Shown: positions 1,835 to 27,193 of the stretch, piece by piece
Numbering within the stretch: position 1 is the first letter of the stretch
Layout: every line of letters starts with the position of its first letter
Source: a virus
Lineage: Duplodnaviria; Heunggongvirae; Uroviricota; Caudoviricetes
Reading direction: 5' to 3' (one strand)
Virus record (IMG/VR): IMGVR_UViG_2582581022_000016
DNA: 27,569 bases
The notes under the pieces: generated by a model
The model's input: the letters and a program-made list of their open reading frames with translations, nothing else
Told to the model about the DNA's origin: nothing
The model's database searches: none
Translations under genes and position numbers: made by a program

Positions 1835-1884
1835 TCTCCTAACGATGGGCTTTGTATGTCTGCCGTTAACGAAATCATAACAAA

Positions 1885-1910
1885 CCTCGCTTCGGCGGGG
1901 TTTTTGCTTT
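1885..1910 (+). terminator. Intrinsic terminator (stem CCTCGC / GCGGGG with one G-U pair, TTCG loop, then TTTTTGCTTTT); tR'-like
   Basis: Hairpin plus T-tract read directly. About 50-70 nt downstream of the candidate promoter, so it would define a short leader RNA unless antiterminated. Confidence 0.5.
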
Positions 1911-1924
1911 TCTGGAGGTCAATA

Positions 1925-2182
1925 ATGCAGGGCGAAAAGCAGCAGCCATATTTTTTTAACCCTGGTATGACTGTTGAACAGCTTGAAGACTGGCTGGAGC
2001 AGCAAAAGCTTCATCTAAGCCGCTATAACCGTCTGGTAAAAGAAAAAGCAGAGCTTGAAGAACGGCTCAGTGATATTTCTGTGGAAATTGAACGAATGTC
2101 TGCTGGTAGTTTTAACGGAAAGTTGAGTTTCCCCTGGGAGTCAAGTTCGCTTCTGAGAAATCATCAACAGGGTAGTATTTGA
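1925..2182 (+). CDS. Hypothetical small protein (85 aa) with predicted coiled-coil character
   Basis: ORF track gives 1856..2182, but that start overlaps the terminator. ATG 1925 follows GGAGG (1914..1918) with 6-nt spacing. No family recognised. Confidence 0.4.
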   Translation: MQGEKQQPYFFNPGMTVEQLEDWLEQQKLHLSRYNRLVKEKAELEERLSDISVEIERMSAGSFNGKLSFPWESSSLLRNHQQGSI

Positions 2183-2261
2183 CTGAAATAATAAACAGAC
2201 TGTCATTAAGATCCCTTCCCCTCATATCTGAGAGGACCAACAGCAATTAAGAGGGGGCTAA

Positions 2262-2648
2262 ATGTCCGATCCGATTTCCGGTACTGGGCTGGCTGGTGGT
2301 GCCCTGACGGGTGCCAGTGTTTATGGACTGCTGACCGGAACTGATTACGGCGTTGTATTTGGCGCATTTGCAGGGGCTGTATTCTACATAGCAACAGCAG
2401 CAGATCTGAGTGCATCGCGCCGACTGGCATATTTTATCGTGTCATATATTGCCGGGATTCTTTGCTCTGGGTTGGTTGGCTCCAAGCTGGCGAACTTGAC
2501 CGGATACAGTGATAAACCTCTGGATGCTATTGGTGCCGTAATCGTCTCTGCTTTAGCCGTTAAAATCCTGACGTTCCTGAATCATCAGGATATCGGCTCG
2601 CTGGTGGCGCTCATAACGCGCCGGGGAGGTTCAGGTGGAGCTAAATGA
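2262..2648 (+). CDS. Putative holin / lysis membrane protein (128 aa, 3-4 predicted TM helices, Gly/Ala-rich)
   Basis: Hydrophobic segments GLAGGALTGASVYGLL, VVFGAFAGAVFYIATA, LAYFIVSYIAGILCSGLVG, AIGAVIVSALAVKIL. First gene of a cassette ending in endolysin and spanins. Confidence 0.55.
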   Translation: MSDPISGTGLAGGALTGASVYGLLTGTDYGVVFGAFAGAVFYIATAADLSASRRLAYFIVSYIAGILCSGLVGSKLANLTGYSDKPLDAIGAVIVSALAVKILTFLNHQDIGSLVALITRRGGSGGAK

Positions 2649-2916
2649 CCCGACAGCAACTATAAATGCGCTGTTATGTGCTTGTGTTGTTATTACTCTG
2701 ATGTTTTATCGTCGTGGTGATTCGCGGCATCGTCCTTGGGTTTCACGTTTAGCCTGGCTGATTACTGTTACATACAGTGCTGTTCCGTTGGCCTATCTCT
2801 GTGGGATTTATCCTCATTCCTCATGGCCCATTATCGTGGCGAACACTATTTTTCTTTCCGTGCTGGTGGCCGTCAGAGGCAACGTTGCACGTCTGGTTGA
2901 TCATCTGAGGCACTAA
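2635..2916 (+). CDS. Second holin-like small membrane protein (93 aa, about 3 TM helices); holin or antiholin partner
   Basis: GTG start 2635 preceded by GGGGAGG (2624..2630). Overlaps the stop of the upstream gene and the endolysin ATG (2916). Hydrophobic segments ALLCACVVITLMFY, LAWLITVTYSAVPLAYLCGIY, IIVANTIFLSVLVAV. Confidence 0.5.
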   Translation: MELNDPTATINALLCACVVITLMFYRRGDSRHRPWVSRLAWLITVTYSAVPLAYLCGIYPHSSWPIIVANTIFLSVLVAVRGNVARLVDHLRH

Positions 2917-3530
2917 TGAACCAACAATTATTTCAAAAGGCGGCTGGTATTAGCGCCGGGCTGGCTGCGCGCTGGTTTCCGCACATTGATGCGGCGATGA
3001 AGGAATTCGGCATTACAGCACCAGCGGATCAGGCAATGTTTATCGCTCAGGTAGGCCATGAGTCGATGGGGTTTAGCGCCGTAGTTGAAAATTTTAACTA
3101 CACACCATCTGCGCTGGTGGCGACGTTCGGAAAGAGGATCACACAGCAGCAGGCTGATGCCCTTGGCAGAACATCCGGACATGCAGCTCGTCAGGATGCT
3201 ATTGCCAATCTGGTGTATAGCAACCGGCTGGGTAACAAAGCACCCGGTGATGGCTGGAAATATCGCGGTAGAGGATTAATTCAAATCACTGGCCTCCATA
3301 ATTATCGCATCTGTGGCGCGGCGTTGAAGTTAGATCTGGTGACCTCACCTGAACAACTGGAGCAGGAGCTACAGGCCGCGCGCTCAGCTGCATGGTTCTA
3401 CGCATCTAAAGGCTGCATGGTCTACGGTGCCGATATTAATCGTGTTACGCGCATCATTAACGGCGGTCTGAACGGTATTGAGGATCGTAAGATTCGATAC
3501 AACAAGGCGCGGGCGGCGCTGCTGGTATGA
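2916..3530 (+). CDS. Endolysin, glycoside hydrolase family 19 (chitinase-like) type
   Basis: 204 aa. Motifs FIAQVGHESMGF, YRGRGLIQITG, INGGLNGIEDR match the GH19 catalytic region as I recall it. Lies between holins and spanins. Confidence 0.8.
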   Translation: MNQQLFQKAAGISAGLAARWFPHIDAAMKEFGITAPADQAMFIAQVGHESMGFSAVVENFNYTPSALVATFGKRITQQQADALGRTSGHAARQDAIANLVYSNRLGNKAPGDGWKYRGRGLIQITGLHNYRICGAALKLDLVTSPEQLEQELQAARSAAWFYASKGCMVYGADINRVTRIINGGLNGIEDRKIRYNKARAALLV

Positions 3531-3988
3531 AGATGAGTTATTGGGCGCTCATTTTAACGTTTATTGCTTGTATTGCTGGTGGTCTTGTCTGGTCAGCTAA
3601 TCATTACCACAATAAAGCCATTGAATACAAAAAACAGCGCGACGAAAACGCTATGGCATTAGATTCGGCTATGGCGACGATCTCTGATATGCAGAAGCGT
3701 CAACGTGACGTAGCAGAACTCGATGCCAGATATACAAAGGAGCTTGCTGATGCTAACGCGACTATCGAAAGTCTCCGTGCTGATGTTTCTGCTGGTCGTA
3801 AGCGCCTGCAAGTCGCCGCCACCTGTGCAAAGTCAACGACCGGAGCCAGCGGCATGGGCGATGGAGAAAGCCCAGGACTTACAGCAGATGCTGAACTCAA
3901 TTATTACCGTCTCCGAAGTGGAATCGACAGGATAACCGCGCAGGTTAACTACCTGCAGGAGTACATCAGGACTCAGTGCTTAAAATAA
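3527..3988 (+). CDS. Rz-like i-spanin (N-terminal TM helix plus coiled-coil periplasmic domain)
   Basis: 153 aa. N-terminal TM ALILTFIACIAGGLVW, then charged helical sequence. Start overlaps the endolysin stop (ATGA). Contains an embedded +1 frame lipoprotein ORF. Confidence 0.75.
   Translation: MKMSYWALILTFIACIAGGLVWSANHYHNKAIEYKKQRDENAMALDSAMATISDMQKRQRDVAELDARYTKELADANATIESLRADVSAGRKRLQVAATCAKSTTGASGMGDGESPGLTADAELNYYRLRSGIDRITAQVNYLQEYIRTQCLK
3750..3935 (+). CDS. Rz1-like o-spanin (proline-rich outer-membrane lipoprotein) embedded in the +1 frame of Rz
   Basis: ORF track gives 3723..3935; ATG 3750 follows AAGGAG (3739..3744). Signal peptide MLTRLSKVSVLMFLLVVSA, lipobox VSA-C, then KSPPPVQSQRPEP. 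Fully nested in the Rz gene as in lambda Rz/Rz1. Confidence 0.7.
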   Translation: MLTRLSKVSVLMFLLVVSACKSPPPVQSQRPEPAAWAMEKAQDLQQMLNSIITVSEVESTG

Positions 3989-4030
3989 TTTTAACTTCAC
4001 TGAAATTTAACAAGTGACTTTCAGGAAAAT

Positions 4031-4054
4031 GCCTCGCAGAAGCGGGGCTTTTTT
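4031..4054 (+). terminator. Intrinsic terminator after the lysis cassette (GCCTCGC-AGAA-GCGGGGC then TTTTTT)
   Basis: 7-bp stem with one G-U pair, tetraloop, 6-T tract; read directly. Confidence 0.55.
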
Positions 4055-4201
4055 ATGTCCTCAGTAAATGCGCTTCACACGCGCGACTTATGAACACAGA
4101 GCCTTTCAGGATGACCCTTGAGGATGCCGGTTTGGTTATCGGTGCCTTTCTGTGGGCCGGAATCCTGTGTGACAAGGTTCATCACTAAAAGGTAATTACC
4201 G

Positions 4202-4744
4202 ATGAATTATCCAACTATCGTTGACGGCATTGATTTCAAAGAACTGGTTTTTATTACCAACAATGACCCTGTCACCGATTCATTTATGGTGGCGAAAGCA
4301 TTTCGTAAGCGACATGACAACGTTGTGCGTGATGTAGAAAGAACTATCGCTGCTTGTCCTGAAGAGTTTGATACAAAACTCAATTTTGAGGTTTGCTATA
4401 AAAACAATGAGTTACAGAATGGTAAGCCACAAAAATTCTATCGGCTACGTAAGGATGGGTTGATGCTTTTGGTTATGTCCTACACCAAAAAAGAAGCAAT
4501 GCGTATCAAAATTGCTTACATCAACGCATTCAACTGGATGTACGCCATGCTTCAGGTTGGTAATCGTCAATTTGAAGAAGAGCGAAATGCCGTAATGCTG
4601 GAGTACATGAAAGAGAAGGATGTTGCCAGCATGTCAGGTCGCCTGCTAAATCGCTGGGGAAAAATTAAGAAGCCACAGCTGCTGGCTAGAATTGAACGCC
4701 TTGAACAGCACGGGCAAACCGTAATCCCCGGACTCACCAATTAA
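4202..4744 (+). CDS. Rha-family phage regulatory protein
   Basis: 180 aa. N-terminal VTDSFMVAKAFRKRHDNVVRDVER matches the conserved Rha N-terminal signature as I recall it. Confidence 0.7.
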   Translation: MNYPTIVDGIDFKELVFITNNDPVTDSFMVAKAFRKRHDNVVRDVERTIAACPEEFDTKLNFEVCYKNNELQNGKPQKFYRLRKDGLMLLVMSYTKKEAMRIKIAYINAFNWMYAMLQVGNRQFEEERNAVMLEYMKEKDVASMSGRLLNRWGKIKKPQLLARIERLEQHGQTVIPGLTN

Positions 4745-4924
4745 CGGCAGCACCGCGAAACAACCCAAGCCAGTAAGTGGGGAAATAACACTGGCAGCCA
4801 CTGAAAGATGAACCTCCAGCCTTATGGCAAAAAAGATTCTTTGTGGTGGCGGACTGATGGAAAGACATCGGTTATTGCAGAGGCCATTCAATGAGTGGTC
4901 TCGACAATGGCTTATACCCTGCAC

Positions 4925-4950
4925 GGGATAACTTAACTGATATCCCTTTT
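4925..4950 (+). terminator. Terminator-like hairpin (GGGATA / TATCCC, 10-nt loop, then TTTT)
   Basis: Read directly. Lies in the 286-bp non-coding gap between the Rha gene and the HNH gene. Confidence 0.35.
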
Positions 4951-5030
4951 AACGGATAAACGGAGCCAATAATGGCAGAGAATGTCGGCATTATGGCAGT
5001 GAAATTTGGATAAATCGGAGATTAGTACAT

Positions 5031-5506: not shown

Positions 5507-6001
5507 ATGGCTGGAACGGCGGGGCGTTCCGGGCGTCGCCCCAAGCCAACGGCGCGCAAGGCGCTGGCCGGAAACCCCGGCAAGCGAGCCCTGAACAAAG
5601 ATGAACCTGTTTTTACGCCCATCAAAGGCGTTGAGCCACCGGAGTGGTTCGCAGAAGAAGATCTCCCTCTCGCCACGATCATGTGGCAACTGACAACCAA
5701 AGAACTCTGCGGTCAGGGCCTGCTGTGCGTGACTGACCTCGCGGTGCTTGAGCGGTGGTGCGTGGCCTATGAGTTCTGGCGACGTGCCGTGAAAAATATT
5801 GCCAGACAGGGCAACACCATCACCGGTGCAATGGGCGGCAGGGTCAAAAATCCGGAGCTGACCGCCAAAAAAGAACAGGAGTCCGAGATGAGCAGCACGG
5901 GGGCAATGCTCGGACTCGACCCCGGCAGCCGCCAGCGTCTGATTGGCCTGGCGGGGCAGAAGAAAGCCACTAACCCGTTTCTGAAAATCATCGAGTCATG
6001 A
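5507..6001 (+). CDS. Terminase small subunit (P27-family-like)
   Basis: ORF track starts at GTG 5498; ATG 5507 follows AGGAG (5493..5497). Basic N-terminus ([22 protein letters not shown]), directly upstream of and overlapping the large terminase. Confidence 0.75.
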
Positions 6002-22979: not shown

Positions 22980-23960
22980 ATGCATCGTATAGACACGAAA
23001 ACCGCGCAGAAGGATAAGTTCGGCGCGGGTAAGAACGGTTTTACCCGTGGTAACCCCCAGACCGGCACGCCTGCCACCGATCTGGATGATGACTACTTTG
23101 ACATGTTGCAGGAAGAACTCTGCAGCGTGGTGGAGGCATCCGGTGCCAGTCTGGAGAAGGCGCGGCACGACCAGTTGCTTACCGCGCTTCGTGCTCTGCT
23201 GTTAAGCCGCAAGAATCCGTTTGGCGATATCAAATCGGATGGCACTGTGCAAACGGCTCTCGAAAACCTTGGTATTAAAAACGCATCAACAACACAGGTG
23301 GGTTTAGTCCGGTTAACGTCATCGCGGGTATCGGGTGCAGAGGATATTGCAGCCACAGCTAATGCTGTCGCGCAAAACTATACGGACATAAAATCTTTGC
23401 AAAACAAAACTCAGGATTCAACTACGACACAGAAAGGAATTGTTCAACTTACATCATCAAGGGTATCCGAATCTGAAACGCTTGCTGCAACAGCAAAAGC
23501 GGCAGCGATGAATTATGCGGATATACAGGCGTTGCAAGGCAAGACCAATGATGCGACCCCAACAAACAAGGGAATTATCCGCGTATCTGATTCCAGAACA
23601 TCGACGGAATCTGGTGTTGCTGCATCATCACTTGCTGCATCACAAAACTATTCAGATATGAAAGGGTTGTTTGGTCAATGCGGAATGAAATATAGAAATC
23701 TCGGTGTCGTATACACCAACAGCCAGTCTTTCGCCATATTTGTAAGCGTCAATGCGGTGCTGTCTGACGGTAGTTCATTTCTGAGCGCCAACGTTAATGT
23801 GGATGGTAATTCGGCTAATTTTCGCGGCTCTCAGACAACAAATCTTGCAGGGCAAAGAGCAACTATCGCATTCATGGTTCCTGCCGGTGCGACCTATATT
23901 GTGCAGCAGTTTTCAGGAACAGTGTCAGATGTTACCTGGGTAGAGGTGGATAAAAAATGA
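22980..23960 (+). CDS. Tail fibre protein with three tandem repeats of about 40 aa and a C-terminal receptor-binding region
   Basis: 326 aa. Conserved-looking N-terminus, repeats [40 protein letters not shown] / [40 protein letters not shown] / [37 protein letters not shown], then a divergent C-terminus. Confidence 0.85.
23286..23669 (+). repeat. Three tandem copies of a ~120-bp coding repeat inside the tail fibre gene (phage fibre repeat)
   Basis: Seen at protein level (residues about 103-230) and reflected in the DNA. Confidence 0.7.
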
Positions 23961-24325
23961 TAACAATGATGAAGTATTACAAAGATGAAAATAACGTCGT
24001 ATATGCCTACGATGCGTATGGCACACAGGATGCTTTTATCAAAGAAGGGCTTGTGCCAATCACCAGAAGTGAGGTTATGGCAATTATTAATCCCCCACCG
24101 ACTCATGAACAACTCATCCAGGCTGCTGAAAATGAGCGACAGCGATTACTGTCCGCCGCTGATGCAATTATGCTCGACTGGCGCACAGAGCTGATGCTGG
24201 GTGAAATCAGCGATGCCAACAGAGCTAAACTTTCGGCGTGGCTTTTATATAAGAATCAGGTTAAGGCTGTTGATGTAACAACCGACCCTGAGCATGTTAA
24301 CTGGCCTGTCATCCCGGAACTTTAG
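23957..24325 (+). CDS. Tail fibre assembly protein (Tfa/U-like chaperone)
   Basis: 122 aa; start overlaps the fibre stop (ATGA). Conserved-looking N-terminus (YAYDAYG...) and C-terminus resemble tail fibre assembly proteins as I recall them. Confidence 0.8.
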
Positions 24326-24516
24326 CTGGTTTGGCTATTGCCAGATCCAAAGGCCGGATTGGTGGGCGTAGACCGAAGTTTAGCGACGAGCAGTGGCAAC
24401 AGATGGGAGCGCTCATAGCGGCAGGGAAATCACGGCGTTATGTTGCACGTATCTATAACGTTGGGCTATCAACCCTATATAAACGATTTCCTGTTACTGG
24501 CATTCAAACGAAATAA
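24319..24516 (+). pseudogene. C-terminal remnant of a serine invertase (Gin/Pin/Cin/Hin family): helix-turn-helix DNA-binding domain only, catalytic domain missing
   Basis: Translation [56 protein letters not shown] matches the C-terminal end of Hin/Gin-type invertases as I recall them. Similarity begins around 24319, overlapping the tfa stop. The frame is open back to a TAA at 24298..24300, with no room for the ~130-aa catalytic domain. ORF track reports a TTG-initiated 61-aa ORF at 24331..24516. Confidence 0.7.
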
Positions 24517-24659
24517 TTTAAAAGCAATTTAAAGAGTTATTTGTCTAATGTTGGAAGCCGCAGCCACGTCGTATGCAAGAACGTGCTGCGGCTGGCTGGC
24601 GAACTTTCGATAGTGCGATTATTGAATGATTTCCAGCCGTTACCGATTTTACGTGTTAA

Positions 24660-24908
24660 TTAGTGAACAAACCACTCGTCAGCAGATTCCCAGGTATCTT
24701 TCAGAGTCTCCTGAACAAAAGTTTTTGCAGAATCCTTATCTGCGGTGCGTGTAACAGAAAGGCCATCGTTGCTGGTGGCTTTTACGATCACCTCTACATC
24801 GTCATAACGTTTACTGATGCGTCGGGTTAATTCTTCCTTTAACGCATCCACAGCACCGGTTGGCATTTTAGTCATTTTTTCTTTGGCTATGCAGATTTCA
24901 ATACGCAT
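24660..24908 (-). CDS. dinI: DinI-family protein (DNA-damage-inducible protein I homolog, prophage-encoded)
   Basis: 82 aa. MRIEICIAK...LKEELTRRI...[16 protein letters not shown] matches E. coli DinI closely as I recall it. GAGGGA Shine-Dalgarno 5 nt upstream of the ATG on the minus strand; two LexA boxes upstream. Confidence 0.85.
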
Positions 24909-24921
24909 AAAAGTCCCTCTA

Positions 24922-24941
24922 TACTGTGTTTGTATACAGTA
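24922..24941 (-). promoter_or_regulatory. LexA (SOS) box 1: TACTGTGTTTGTATACAGTA
   Basis: Matches CTGT-N8-ACAG with TA-rich flanks; lies in the promoter/5' UTR of the dinI homolog. Confidence 0.75.
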
Positions 24942-24949
24942 TTATTTTT

Positions 24950-24969
24950 AACTGTATGGATAAACAGTG
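24950..24969 (-). promoter_or_regulatory. LexA (SOS) box 2: AACTGTATGGATAAACAGTG
   Basis: Second CTGT-N8-ACAG match, 28 bp from box 1 centre to centre; abuts the integrase stop codon (24970). Confidence 0.65.
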
Positions 24970-26067
24970 TCAAGGGGTCTTATTTCTGCTCCTTTGGAGC
25001 TCTTCAAAACGATTATGTAAAGATTTCGGATACAGTTCGGTATATACCTGCCATAGCACGTTTAATGAACGATGCCCTGTAACCTGGGCCACTTCCTCAA
25101 TACTAAAACCAGCCTCAAATAAGCGACTTGCCCCTTCTCTACGCAAATCATGGTATCGCAGATCCTTAATACCTAATTTGCTTCTTACCCTCTGAAATCC
25201 CGCAGTAACAGAAGTGCTGTTATATGGAAAAATGAATTCCGATTTTTTGGGCTGTCGTTGGACGATATCCCAGGCTTCCCCAAGCAAGGCTACTTTCATG
25301 TGGTTGCCTTCCTTTTTGCGTGGATCTTTCCTGTCTCTTACGAGTATAGATTTTTGTTCCTGGTCGAGATCTTCCCATCGTAACCGGCATACTTCTCCGA
25401 TTCGCATACAGGACCACACAGAAAATTTGAGGATATCAACGAACGGAATTTTTGAGCATTTATGAGTAGATCGTTGTTGAAGGCCTTCAATGAGCATGTC
25501 CAGTTCATCAGATGCTGGTCTACGATTACGACGGTTTGATTTACCAATCAAACCAAGTTTAAGTAGATATGGACGAGCACTTTTCGCCGGGTTTGATGTG
25601 TAATTAATTCCGTATACAGGTTTGGCCGCATCCAGAACACTGCCAAGATAACTAACATCGTGGCTGACTGTTGCTGGACCTGCGCCAGCGTTGTTTCTTA
25701 GCCTGCAATGTTCAATTACGTCATTTTCTGTCAGTTCAGATAGTTTGATCGCGGAGATGTCACTATCCATAAGCAGTTCCAGCACATATCTTTTAGTACG
25801 GCCTGCTTTACCTCCGGCATTTGGGTCATTTAAATATTTGTGTAGTAAGTCACGGACTGTAAGTCCGTCAACTGCATTTGATGATGGAATGCCATATAGA
25901 TCTAATTCCATCACTTTCTGTGTGCCCCATGTTTTGGCATGAGCATGTTTAGGGAATGTTTTGCTTTCCCTGTAAGTGATAACACCTTTTTCTTTGATAA
26001 TCACATTACAGCGATAGCGTGGTGTGCCATCGGATTTTAGTCGTTTCTCTATGTTATAGTACGCCAT
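24970..26067 (-). CDS. int: Tyrosine recombinase / phage integrase, dusA-associated type
   Basis: 365 aa with the catalytic signature of tyrosine recombinases (R in CMRIGEVCRLR, H-x-x-R in YHDLRREG, GHRS, Tyr near the C-terminus). Lower GC than tail genes. Divergently adjacent to the dusA 5' end. Confidence 0.9.
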   Translation of the reverse strand: MAYYNIEKRLKSDGTPRYRCNVIIKEKGVITYRESKTFPKHAHAKTWGTQKVMELDLYGIPSSNAVDGLTVRDLLHKYLNDPNAGGKAGRTKRYVLELLMDSDISAIKLSELTENDVIEHCRLRNNAGAGPATVSHDVSYLGSVLDAAKPVYGINYTSNPAKSARPYLLKLGLIGKSNRRNRRPASDELDMLIEGLQQRSTHKCSKIPFVDILKFSVWSCMRIGEVCRLRWEDLDQEQKSILVRDRKDPRKKEGNHMKVALLGEAWDIVQRQPKKSEFIFPYNSTSVTAGFQRVRSKLGIKDLRYHDLRREGASRLFEAGFSIEEVAQVTGHRSLNVLWQVYTELYPKSLHNRFEELQRSRNKTP

Positions 26068-26086
26068 TACACGACCTCGTTATTTC

Positions 26087-26122
26087 GGGTTCCCATAAAA
26101 CGTGGGAACCTGTGCGGGAACC
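26087..26122. repeat. Three copies of GGGAACC (one inverted at 26088..26094, two direct at 26104..26110 and 26116..26122) in the int-dusA intergenic region; candidate operator or recombinase-binding sites
   Basis: Read directly; GGGTTCCCA-TAAAACG-TGGGAACC forms an 8-bp inverted repeat, followed by a third direct copy. Confidence 0.35.
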
Positions 26123-26155
26123 TAATGCGAGAAAAATAGCCTGAAATGTTCAAAA

Positions 26156-27193
26156 ATGCACGATAATCATGAAACACAAAAAATTAATCAAACCAGCGTG
26201 ATGCCTGAAAAAACTGGTGTTTACTGGAATTCTCGGTTTAGCATTGCTCCTATGCTTGACTGGACGGACAGACATTGCCGTTATTTCTTGCGTCTGCTTT
26301 CCCGCAATACGTTGCTGTATACCGAAATGGTGACCACAGGGGCGATTATTCACGGTAAAGGTGATTACCTGGCGTACAGTGAAGAAGAACATCCGGTAGC
26401 GTTGCAACTCGGGGGTAGCGATCCGGCGGCGCTGGCACAGTGTGCGAAGCTGGCAGAAGCGCGTGGATACGATGAGATCAACCTGAATGTCGGCTGCCCG
26501 TCTGACCGGGTGCAGAACGGCATGTTTGGTGCGTGTCTGATGGGTAATGCGCAGCTGGTTGCCGACTGCGTGAAAGCGATGCGCGATGTGGTGTCGATTC
26601 CGGTGACGGTGAAAACGCGTATTGGCATCGATGATCAGGACAGCTATGAATTTCTCTGCGATTTCATCAACACCGTTTCCGGCAAAGGTGAGTGTGAGAT
26701 GTTCATCATCCACGCACGTAAAGCCTGGCTTTCTGGGTTAAGTCCGAAAGAAAACCGTGAGATCCCGCCGCTCGATTATCCGCGTGTGTATCAACTGAAG
26801 CGTGACTTTCCGCATCTGACGATGTCGATTAACGGTGGTATCAAGTCGCTGGAAGAAGCTAAAGCGCATTTGCAACATATGGATGGCGTGATGGTCGGGC
26901 GCGAGGCGTATCAGAATCCGGGTATTCTGGCGGCGGTAGACCGAGAGATTTTTGGTTCCTCGGATACTGATGCTGATCCGGTGGCGGTAGTGCGCGCCAT
27001 GTATCCGTACATTGAGCGTGAACTCAGCCAGGGTACGTATCTCGGCCATATTACCCGGCATATGCTGGGCTTGTTCCAGGGTATTCCTGGCGCGCGGCAG
27101 TGGCGGCGTTATTTAAGTGAAAATGCCCATAAAGCGGGTGCAGACATTAATGTGCTGGAACACGCGCTCAAACTGGTGGCGGATAAGCGTTAA
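26156..27193 (+). CDS. dusA: tRNA-dihydrouridine synthase A (host gene, integration target of the prophage)
   Basis: 345 aa. Dus-family motifs ([28 protein letters not shown]) and overall sequence match E. coli DusA as I recall it. Confidence 0.9.

Follow-up and report, generated by a model that had tools for sequence, protein, structure and literature searches.

The stretch of DNA analyzed here, which we call the window, is 27,569 nucleotides long. It covers the right two-thirds of an E. coli prophage whose integration site is the 5' end of dusA. Its first genes, in order, encode late regulation and lysis functions, a terminase, an HK97-type head, and a Mu-type contractile tail with its baseplate. 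Genes for the tail fibre and its assembly come next, and then what remains of a pin-type invertase, a dinI-like gene and int (both on the minus strand), dusA, and pspG. The int gene (24970..26067, minus strand) codes for a tyrosine integrase targeting dusA, as identified with Pfam PF00589 and the RefSeq annotation of near-identical loci. On the minus strand its stop codon, TGA, is at 24972-24970 and the ATG of dinI at 24908-24906, leaving 61 bp between the two genes. The 1.9-kb segment with pin, dinI, int, and dusA (24317-26200) is 99.9% identical to its counterparts in phage SKA5 and in many E. coli chromosomes.

The prophage is colinear with that of strain 19-5 outside the lysis region, where positions 1868-5029 have no megablast match in strain 19-5. 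With both sides 98% identical to strain 19-5, this stretch reads as a mosaic replacement. At 26153-26256 the prophage supplies a replacement dusA 5' end. The native fragment that it displaced is found at the other prophage end (strain 19-5, record L180, 5882-5985), and the two are 83% identical over 104 bp. Replacement of the dusA 5' end matches the description of dusA-specific integrases in Farrugia 2015 (PMC4482086). In strain 19-5, about 4 kb separate the host lexA-dinF locus (L180 1326-1934) from the far end of the prophage, attL (5885-5989), probably a coincidence of the dusA integration site. Just upstream of int, the int-dusA intergenic region (26080-26125) contains short repeats in inverted and direct orientation, GGGTTCCCA and then TGGGAACCT and GGGAACCTA. 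They could be a binding site for a regulator or for recombination directionality, or part of the int promoter. The invertase remnant (24331-24516) is the C-terminal HTH part alone of a pin/gin-type DNA invertase (61 aa), while SKA5 and strain 19-5 encode the full invertase along with an invertible tail-fibre segment. The window instead has at 23274-24316 a different tail-fibre C-terminus and tfa cassette, without homology to strain 19-5. As this cassette replaces the invertible segment and the catalytic half of the invertase, tail-fibre switching is frozen in the window. Both SKA5 and strain 19-5 encode a LexA-family repressor with an S24 self-cleavage domain, the gene for which is outside the window. 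The nin region of related prophages also codes for a 108-aa protein annotated as 'LexA family transcriptional regulator' or 'LexA-like' (L180 15945-16271; a second record, L083, 8484-8810).

The minus-strand gene at 24660..24908 was originally predicted to encode a DinI-family protein, and profile searches with its 82-aa product agree. The protein matches Pfam PF06183 (E = 1.1e-19; 70.9 bits against a cut-off of 24.2) and the PDB DinI structures 1ghh/7ywa over the full length (residues 1-81; E = 3.7e-13). It also matches PHROG 189, 'RecA filament binding protein DinI', at positions 71-149 of the 151 in the profile (E = 6e-31). PGAP uses the name 'DinI-like family protein' for the gene. The protein is 49% identical to K-12 DinI and scores 73 bits against the NCBIfam equivalog model NF007893. 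The cut-off of that model is 111, indicating the protein is a paralogue and not the housekeeping DinI. In the RecA-DinI cryo-EM structure, L13, L21, W71, W77, and F78 of DinI form a pocket for F203 of RecA, with E24, E69, and D76 making up the acidic patch of DinI (PMC9926225). In an alignment, the pocket equivalents in the window protein are M15, L23, W73, W79, and F80, and those of the acidic patch are E26, D71, and E78. All eight contact residues are thus identical or conservatively replaced, from which it is reasonable to infer that the window protein may bind RecA filaments.

The 61-bp gap upstream of dinI had been predicted to contain two CTGT-N8-ACAG sites, and both are there with the exact sequences and coordinates proposed. 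Box 1, TACTGTGTTTGTATACAGTA, is at 24922-24941 with its core at 24924-24939 and reads TACTGTATACAAACACAGTA on the dinI strand. Box 2, AACTGTATGGATAAACAGTG, is at 24950-24969 with its core at 24952-24967 and reads CACTGTTTATCCATACAGTT on that strand. The two cores have 12 bp between them and are 28 bp apart centre to centre. On the dinI strand, the whole gap is CC-TTGACA-CTGTTTATCCATACAG-T-TAAAAA-TAATA-CTGTATACAAACACAG-TATA-GAGGGA-CTTTT-ATG.

To rate the two boxes, a heterology index (HI) was calculated for all 20-mers of the window, using a matrix of 25 E. coli LexA operators; absolute HI values are approximate. Box 1 has an HI of 2.95, the best in the window, and box 2 an HI of 6.07, with the third-best site at 12.8. 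The training operators range in HI from 0.8 to 9.6 with a leave-one-out median of 6.9, so both boxes score within the range of the operators used for training, in line with the original prediction that they are LexA sites. In the entire 37.6-kb genome of phage SKA5, they are the only sites with an HI of 12 or lower, which leaves dinI as the only gene of an SKA5-type phage with a candidate LexA operator.

With a motif as short as CTGT-N8-ACAG, the palindromes could in principle be chance A+T-rich or promoter-spacer sequence to which LexA does not bind in vivo, with dinI expressed constitutively or by read-through from int. Such read-through is physically possible as the int-dinI gap has no terminator. 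The motif occurs twice in the 27.5-kb window, both times in the int-dinI gap, against 0.39 occurrences expected window-wide, and at least two matches anywhere were found in 5 of 100 whole-window shuffles. The full 20-mers, however, score like proven operators, and none of 300 dinucleotide-preserving shuffles of the window contained any site with an HI of 6.1 or lower. Both sites also fit within 48 bp, on the promoter of a gene whose homologues nearly all have LexA control (73 of 80 loci, see below).

The -35 hexamer of that promoter, TTGACA (24968..24973, minus strand), is a perfect match to the consensus and contains the TGA stop codon of int. A promoter scan placed the -10 element at 24944..24950 (minus strand), either as TAAAAA after a 17-nt spacer or as AAAAAT after an 18-nt spacer. 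TTGACA with the 18-nt spacer and AAAAAT matches the consensus at 10 of 12 positions, giving a predicted sigma-70 promoter, and the depositors of the phage mEp460 record independently annotated the same promoter. This promoter has a weak -10, and its transcription start is a predicted one. The Shine-Dalgarno sequence, GAGGGA (24914..24919, minus strand), was read from the sequence and is 5-6 nt before the dinI ATG; relatives have GAGGGA or GGAGGG. Box 2 fills the whole spacer between -35 and -10. Box 1 is 3-4 nt past the -10, over the predicted transcription start, and its 20-mer ends 13 nt before the ATG. Both sites are thus in the predicted regulatory region of dinI, as had been proposed.

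The E. coli recA promoter has one LexA operator in its -35/-10 spacer (TTGATA-CTGT...ACAG-TATAAT) and a consensus -10. The window promoter is like it in having a LexA box exactly in the spacer (TTGACA-CTGT...ACAG-T-TAAAAA) but has a second operator over the start site and a weak -10. In an anchored alignment of 15 distinct promoters, column identity is 20-60% upstream of the -35. It reaches at least 90% in TTGA-ACTG and in the distal CAG of box 2, while most of the -10 region is at 80-90%. The -10 is kept as TAAAxx across genera.

To determine how widely the two boxes are kept, we compared the region upstream of dinI among relatives. About 60 IMG/VR and phage loci have upstream sequence, and all 28 distinct variants among them keep both CTGT/ACAG cores. 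Fourteen named phages encode a DinI with 38-95% protein identity, and all but Yersinia YeP1 have a strong box 13-19 nt from the ATG. In YeP1, dinI is the second gene and the box is 305 nt upstream. Among the named phages, those of the E. coli 82-aa class have the double box, down to 60% identity. Stx2_95, Stx1_499, and BP-4795 have kept box 1, but their box 2 has decayed (CTGG...ACAG or ACAA, HI of about 10). The decay in some Stx-phage lineages indicates that box 2 is not indispensable and that double occupancy is not universally required.

We also surveyed 80 dinI loci from different species for boxes with an HI of 11 or lower within 120 nt upstream of the gene. At least one LexA box is present in 73 of the 80 and two or more sites in 15. 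Only the 81/82-aa 'IAKEK..MP' subfamily has a regular double layout, in which one box ends about 13-15 nt from the ATG and the other about 40-42 nt. Within the subfamily, this layout is found in Escherichia, Shigella, Erwinia, and Mixta. TTGACA is fused to CTGT in all four genera. In Erwinia and Mixta (56-59% protein identity), the box sequences have diverged while the order TTGACA, CTGT-N8-xCAG, -10, CTGT-N8-xCAG is kept. Every 81/82-aa-class relative examined has box 1 except for two Rosenbergiella loci (L113 and L116), which have the spacer box only. In the chromosomal dinI genes (81 aa) and in the Gifsy class (74-79 aa), only one box is strong. It is 15-23 nt from the ATG, mostly at 18-19 nt, and a few of these loci have an additional weak second site (HI of about 10). 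The gap between the two boxes ranges from 10 to 13 bp among relatives, so each box seems placed relative to the promoter elements and not to the other box. We considered fixed helical phasing or cooperativity between the boxes, but the variable gap argues against it and we make no such claim. Klebsiella phage P18-100 has a near-consensus LexA box, TGCTGTATTTATATACAGTA (record L090, 945-964; HI of 1.2), about 525 bp downstream of its dinI-like gene. This box is flanked on either side by a small hypothetical ORF of the opposite strand and closely precedes one of the two, which suggests a second SOS-controlled unit at the prophage end.

Among the relatives, the cores of the two boxes are invariant while flanking and spacer bases vary. 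Together, the statistics and the conservation exclude a chance occurrence, making it highly improbable that the palindromes are sequence LexA ignores. The boxes have the features of E. coli-type LexA operators, namely palindromes with an HI in the range of proven operators, overlap with a predicted promoter, and conservation among orthologs. We therefore read them as a real SOS operator pair that is probably functional. SOS induction of dinI is very likely given the operator-grade sequence of the sites, their position on the promoter, and their evolutionary conservation.

The promoter, the operators, dinI, and the terminator appear from their boundaries to be a mobile cassette of about 420 bp (approximately 24555-24976, minus strand) that is independent of int. 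In blastn comparisons with the int-carrying relatives mEp460 and 1720a-02, homology continues through int. With the Stx1, Stx2, and Stx2c phages, P-EibC, BP-4795, PhiR12_2, and several IMG/VR prophages, it starts at 24973-24976, at the -35, upstream of which there is no conservation. At the other side, homology with these int-less contexts ends at 24565, inside a 3' hairpin, or at the stop codon of dinI; the downstream limit of the cassette is at 24555-24566. The last codon and the stop codon of int overlap the start of the cassette, with int itself an upstream neighbour outside of it. In Stx phages no int gene separates the cassette from the att duplication, which is 200-270 bp away. In Erwinia and Mixta the unit of promoter, operators, and dinI directly follows smpB. 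The gene normally found after smpB is that for tmRNA, a common integration site, suggesting that the smpB position is the edge of an integrated element.

These boundaries bear on whether the operators might serve int, with LexA acting as a roadblock, as a 3'-end signal, or on an antisense promoter, and so coupling integration and excision to SOS. The -35 and box 2 do abut the int stop codon, and int and dinI travel together in mEp460, SKA5, and several Stx phages (96-99.9% identity). The operator pair and promoter nonetheless occur without an upstream int, next to Stx att repeats and Erwinia and Mixta smpB, and the promoter scan found no promoter-like site on the plus strand toward int. The boxes are unlikely to be Int arm sites either, as the att region, near 26153-26256, is over 1.1 kb away. 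A role for the operators in int control is accordingly very unlikely. The original prediction had attached significance to the position of dinI next to int; with the cassette boundary exactly at the -35, that proximity is incidental and the operators are best assigned to dinI.

The 3' hairpin, a terminator stem-loop at 24556..24593 (minus strand), is the downstream end of the cassette and folds better than shuffled sequences (z = -3.1). It is kept in six phages with some compensatory changes. The U-tract after it is canonical in mEp460 and has been lost in the window at the junction with the invertase remnant. Downstream of dinI, no minus-strand ORF of at least 20 aa was found at 24417-24660. 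With no ORF after it on its strand and a hairpin following, dinI is monocistronic. [quoted passage not shown] The cassette has the features of a phage moron, with its own predicted promoter, a terminator (without U-tract in the window), and a presence in unrelated genomic contexts.

Between dinI and the hairpin is a conserved 3' UTR of about 65 nt, longer than in K-12, where the dinI terminator stem is about 20 nt after the stop codon. The 3' end of the Klebsiella dinI mRNA yields an Hfq-dependent small RNA, DinR, which represses ftsZ (PMC10907235). By that precedent, the window cassette could matter for an SOS-induced small RNA from its 3' UTR and not for its protein. The 3' UTR is as conserved as the coding sequence among cassettes, and its fold is more stable than shuffles, as noted above. 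The best duplex with E. coli ftsZ (-60 to +30), however, is at -24.2 kcal/mol, equal to the mean of shuffles, 44% of which did as well, and an Rfam scan of 24000-26300 gave no relevant match. The divergent cassettes of 1720a-02, PhiR12_2, P-EibC, and BP-4795 have unrelated 3' UTRs, and the pairing region of DinR is described as Klebsiella-specific. We therefore regard a small RNA as an unlikely purpose of the cassette.

To determine how common the cassette is, we searched 5,426 complete E. coli genomes. At least 80% of its 421 bp is present in 1,408 of them (about 26%), with up to 9 matching places per genome; one sampled O157:H7 genome has 7. The carriers are Stx, Cdt, and other lambdoid phages. 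Some match to the cassette is found in 5,122 of the 5,426 genomes, most of which carry an unannotated fossil of 150 bp, about 85% identical, made up of the 3' part of dinI and the 3' UTR. In E. coli DA61218, the one genome inspected (record L181, 3001-3152), the fossil is between ecpE and ykgJ and has neither promoter nor LexA boxes. Neighbours of the cassette differ among phages. In BP-4795 (record L092), the LexA-boxed dinI is at 248-496, and 155 bp downstream on the same strand is a gene for a 'putative avirulence protein' (652-1908) that could be SOS-responsive through read-through. Stx2_95 and Stx1_499 instead have nleC, in convergent orientation to dinI.

The Salmonella Gifsy prophages already provide an example of phage dinI homologues under LexA control, and the window cassette is a well-defined addition to this known kind, with a promoter whose two-operator layout is kept across genera. 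A LexA box and a promoter precede dinI in Gifsy-1, -2, and -3, and mitomycin C causes DinI to accumulate (Lemire et al. 2011, PMC3121763). When the Gifsy box region is replaced, the operon, with its genes for prophage-inducing antirepressors, is no longer under damage control. Non-polar deletions of Gifsy dinI had no significant effect on induction (PMC3121763). All three Gifsy dinI genes are induced 4.6- to 23-fold by nalidixate, and each has one box 19 nt from the ATG with an HI of 3.9-5.3 (Merida-Floriano et al., PMC8072944). It is by analogy with these genes that we would expect LexA to bind the window boxes and DNA damage to induce the window dinI.

Like the Gifsy genes, the window dinI encodes a prophage DinI paralogue and has, a short way upstream of its ATG, a LexA box that overlaps the promoter of the gene. 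The proteins of the Gifsy class are shorter (74-79 aa), that of Gifsy-1 being about 42% identical to the window protein, and the Gifsy genes have one box at 18-19 nt from the ATG where the window has two. The Gifsy dinI is in the nin region as the first gene of a dinI-gfoA/gftA-irsA operon, whereas the window dinI stands alone between tail-fibre genes and int. We looked for a Gifsy-type dinI-antirepressor-irsA operon in the window and rejected it, as dinI is followed by the hairpin and not by a small antirepressor ORF. The chromosomal E. coli dinI (b1061) shares with the window gene the fold family, the RecA-contact residues, and a LexA box close upstream of the Shine-Dalgarno sequence. It differs, beyond the 49% protein identity, in its single box and short 3' UTR.

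Other phages also have LexA-controlled genes with a DinI module. Tum of coliphage 186 and the split tum/dinI of PSP3 and Fels-2 are grouped in PHROG 189 with the window protein. Tum is a LexA-controlled antirepressor with a DinI-like C-terminal half. A Tum-type fusion was rejected for the window, where the 82-aa protein covers positions 71-149 of PHROG 189 alone and lacks the N-terminal antirepressor half. No antirepressor ORF adjoining the window dinI was found. In Serratia phage OS31, a DinI-like gene has a LexA box 14 bp upstream (PMC7556043), and the DinI-like gene of Klebsiella phiKO2 is reported to be LexA-regulated in the same article, which cites Casjens 2004. As in the window, the DinI-like gene of these phages is downstream of tail genes and in opposite orientation. 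They differ in that one box is described and that OS31 has a second gene translationally coupled downstream. A 'dinI-like' gene of CFT073 (c0943), a candidate relative, reportedly fell in expression together with sulA, umuD, recN, and dinI in an evolved strain (PMC2817434). In the searchable literature, the precedents for a LexA-boxed phage dinI are from Salmonella, Serratia, and Klebsiella only, and we found no description of the two-operator promoter of the E. coli 82-aa class there, nor EMSA, ChIP, or transcript data on it.

From the sites, scores, promoter geometry, cassette boundaries, and conservation computed here, we are confident that the region is an autonomous, monocistronic dinI moron cassette, LexA-repressed and damage-induced, with a product that would bind RecA filaments. 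The sigma-70 promoter, with its perfect -35 and weak -10, would give rise to a monocistronic dinI mRNA that ends at the 3' hairpin and has a good ribosome-binding site after a 5' UTR about 30 nt long. As long as the lysogen is undamaged, LexA dimers bound to the two boxes would exclude RNA polymerase, though either site alone should occlude it. On DNA damage, RecA filaments would lead LexA to cleave itself and the dinI promoter would fire. As both sites are strong, firing would probably have to wait until LexA is well depleted. With two low-HI operators on one promoter, tight repression, as originally proposed, and late firing are a plausible outcome.

The 82-aa product should attach to RecA filaments, stabilise them, and compete with the substrates of the co-protease. 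Lambda cI, LexA, UmuD, and DinI share one groove of RecA (PMC9926225). With the contact residues of E. coli DinI kept, the window protein is expected in this groove used by LexA, UmuD, and lambda-type repressors. Competition between the protein and a prophage repressor is mechanistically plausible because the LexA-family S24 repressor of the relatives would use the same groove. A part for the gene in tuning induction, as originally suggested, may follow from such competition, but the sole genetic test in a related system, deletion of the Gifsy dinI genes, was negative. Candidate benefits to the phage include gating the cleavage of its own LexA-family repressor, limiting UmuD' mutagenesis, and helping the host.

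It is possible, if less probable than not, that the regulation is as we propose while the gene is one of lysogenic conversion that benefits the host, the extra DinI restraining UmuD' mutagenesis or stabilising RecA with no role in the phage switch. The unchanged induction of Gifsy prophages after dinI deletion (PMC3121763) fits such a role, as do the independent mobility of the moron at prophage edges, in up to 9 places of one genome, and the fixation of a cassette fossil in the E. coli core genome. Against it, an effect on induction is plausible for a protein sharing the RecA groove with an S24 repressor, and our data do not separate benefit to the host from benefit to the phage. More speculatively, the two-operator, att-adjacent 82-aa DinI cassette might be a gate on the RecA co-protease, released in deep SOS only. 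The protein would then occupy the groove and delay or set a threshold for cleavage of the LexA-family repressors of its own and of co-resident prophages, with cassette copy number tuning prophage and Shiga-toxin induction and prophage competition. We consider this a long shot.

For the autonomous LexA-repressed dinI cassette that we favour, the importance is that LexA-controlled prophage genes decide how mobile elements read the DNA damage of their host. Our results mainly add a well-defined two-operator promoter, belonging to dinI and not to int, to the accessory SOS regulon of E. coli. If the encoded protein alters RecA-driven cleavage of prophage repressors or of UmuD, then both the induction of toxin phages by antibiotics and SOS mutagenesis would be affected.
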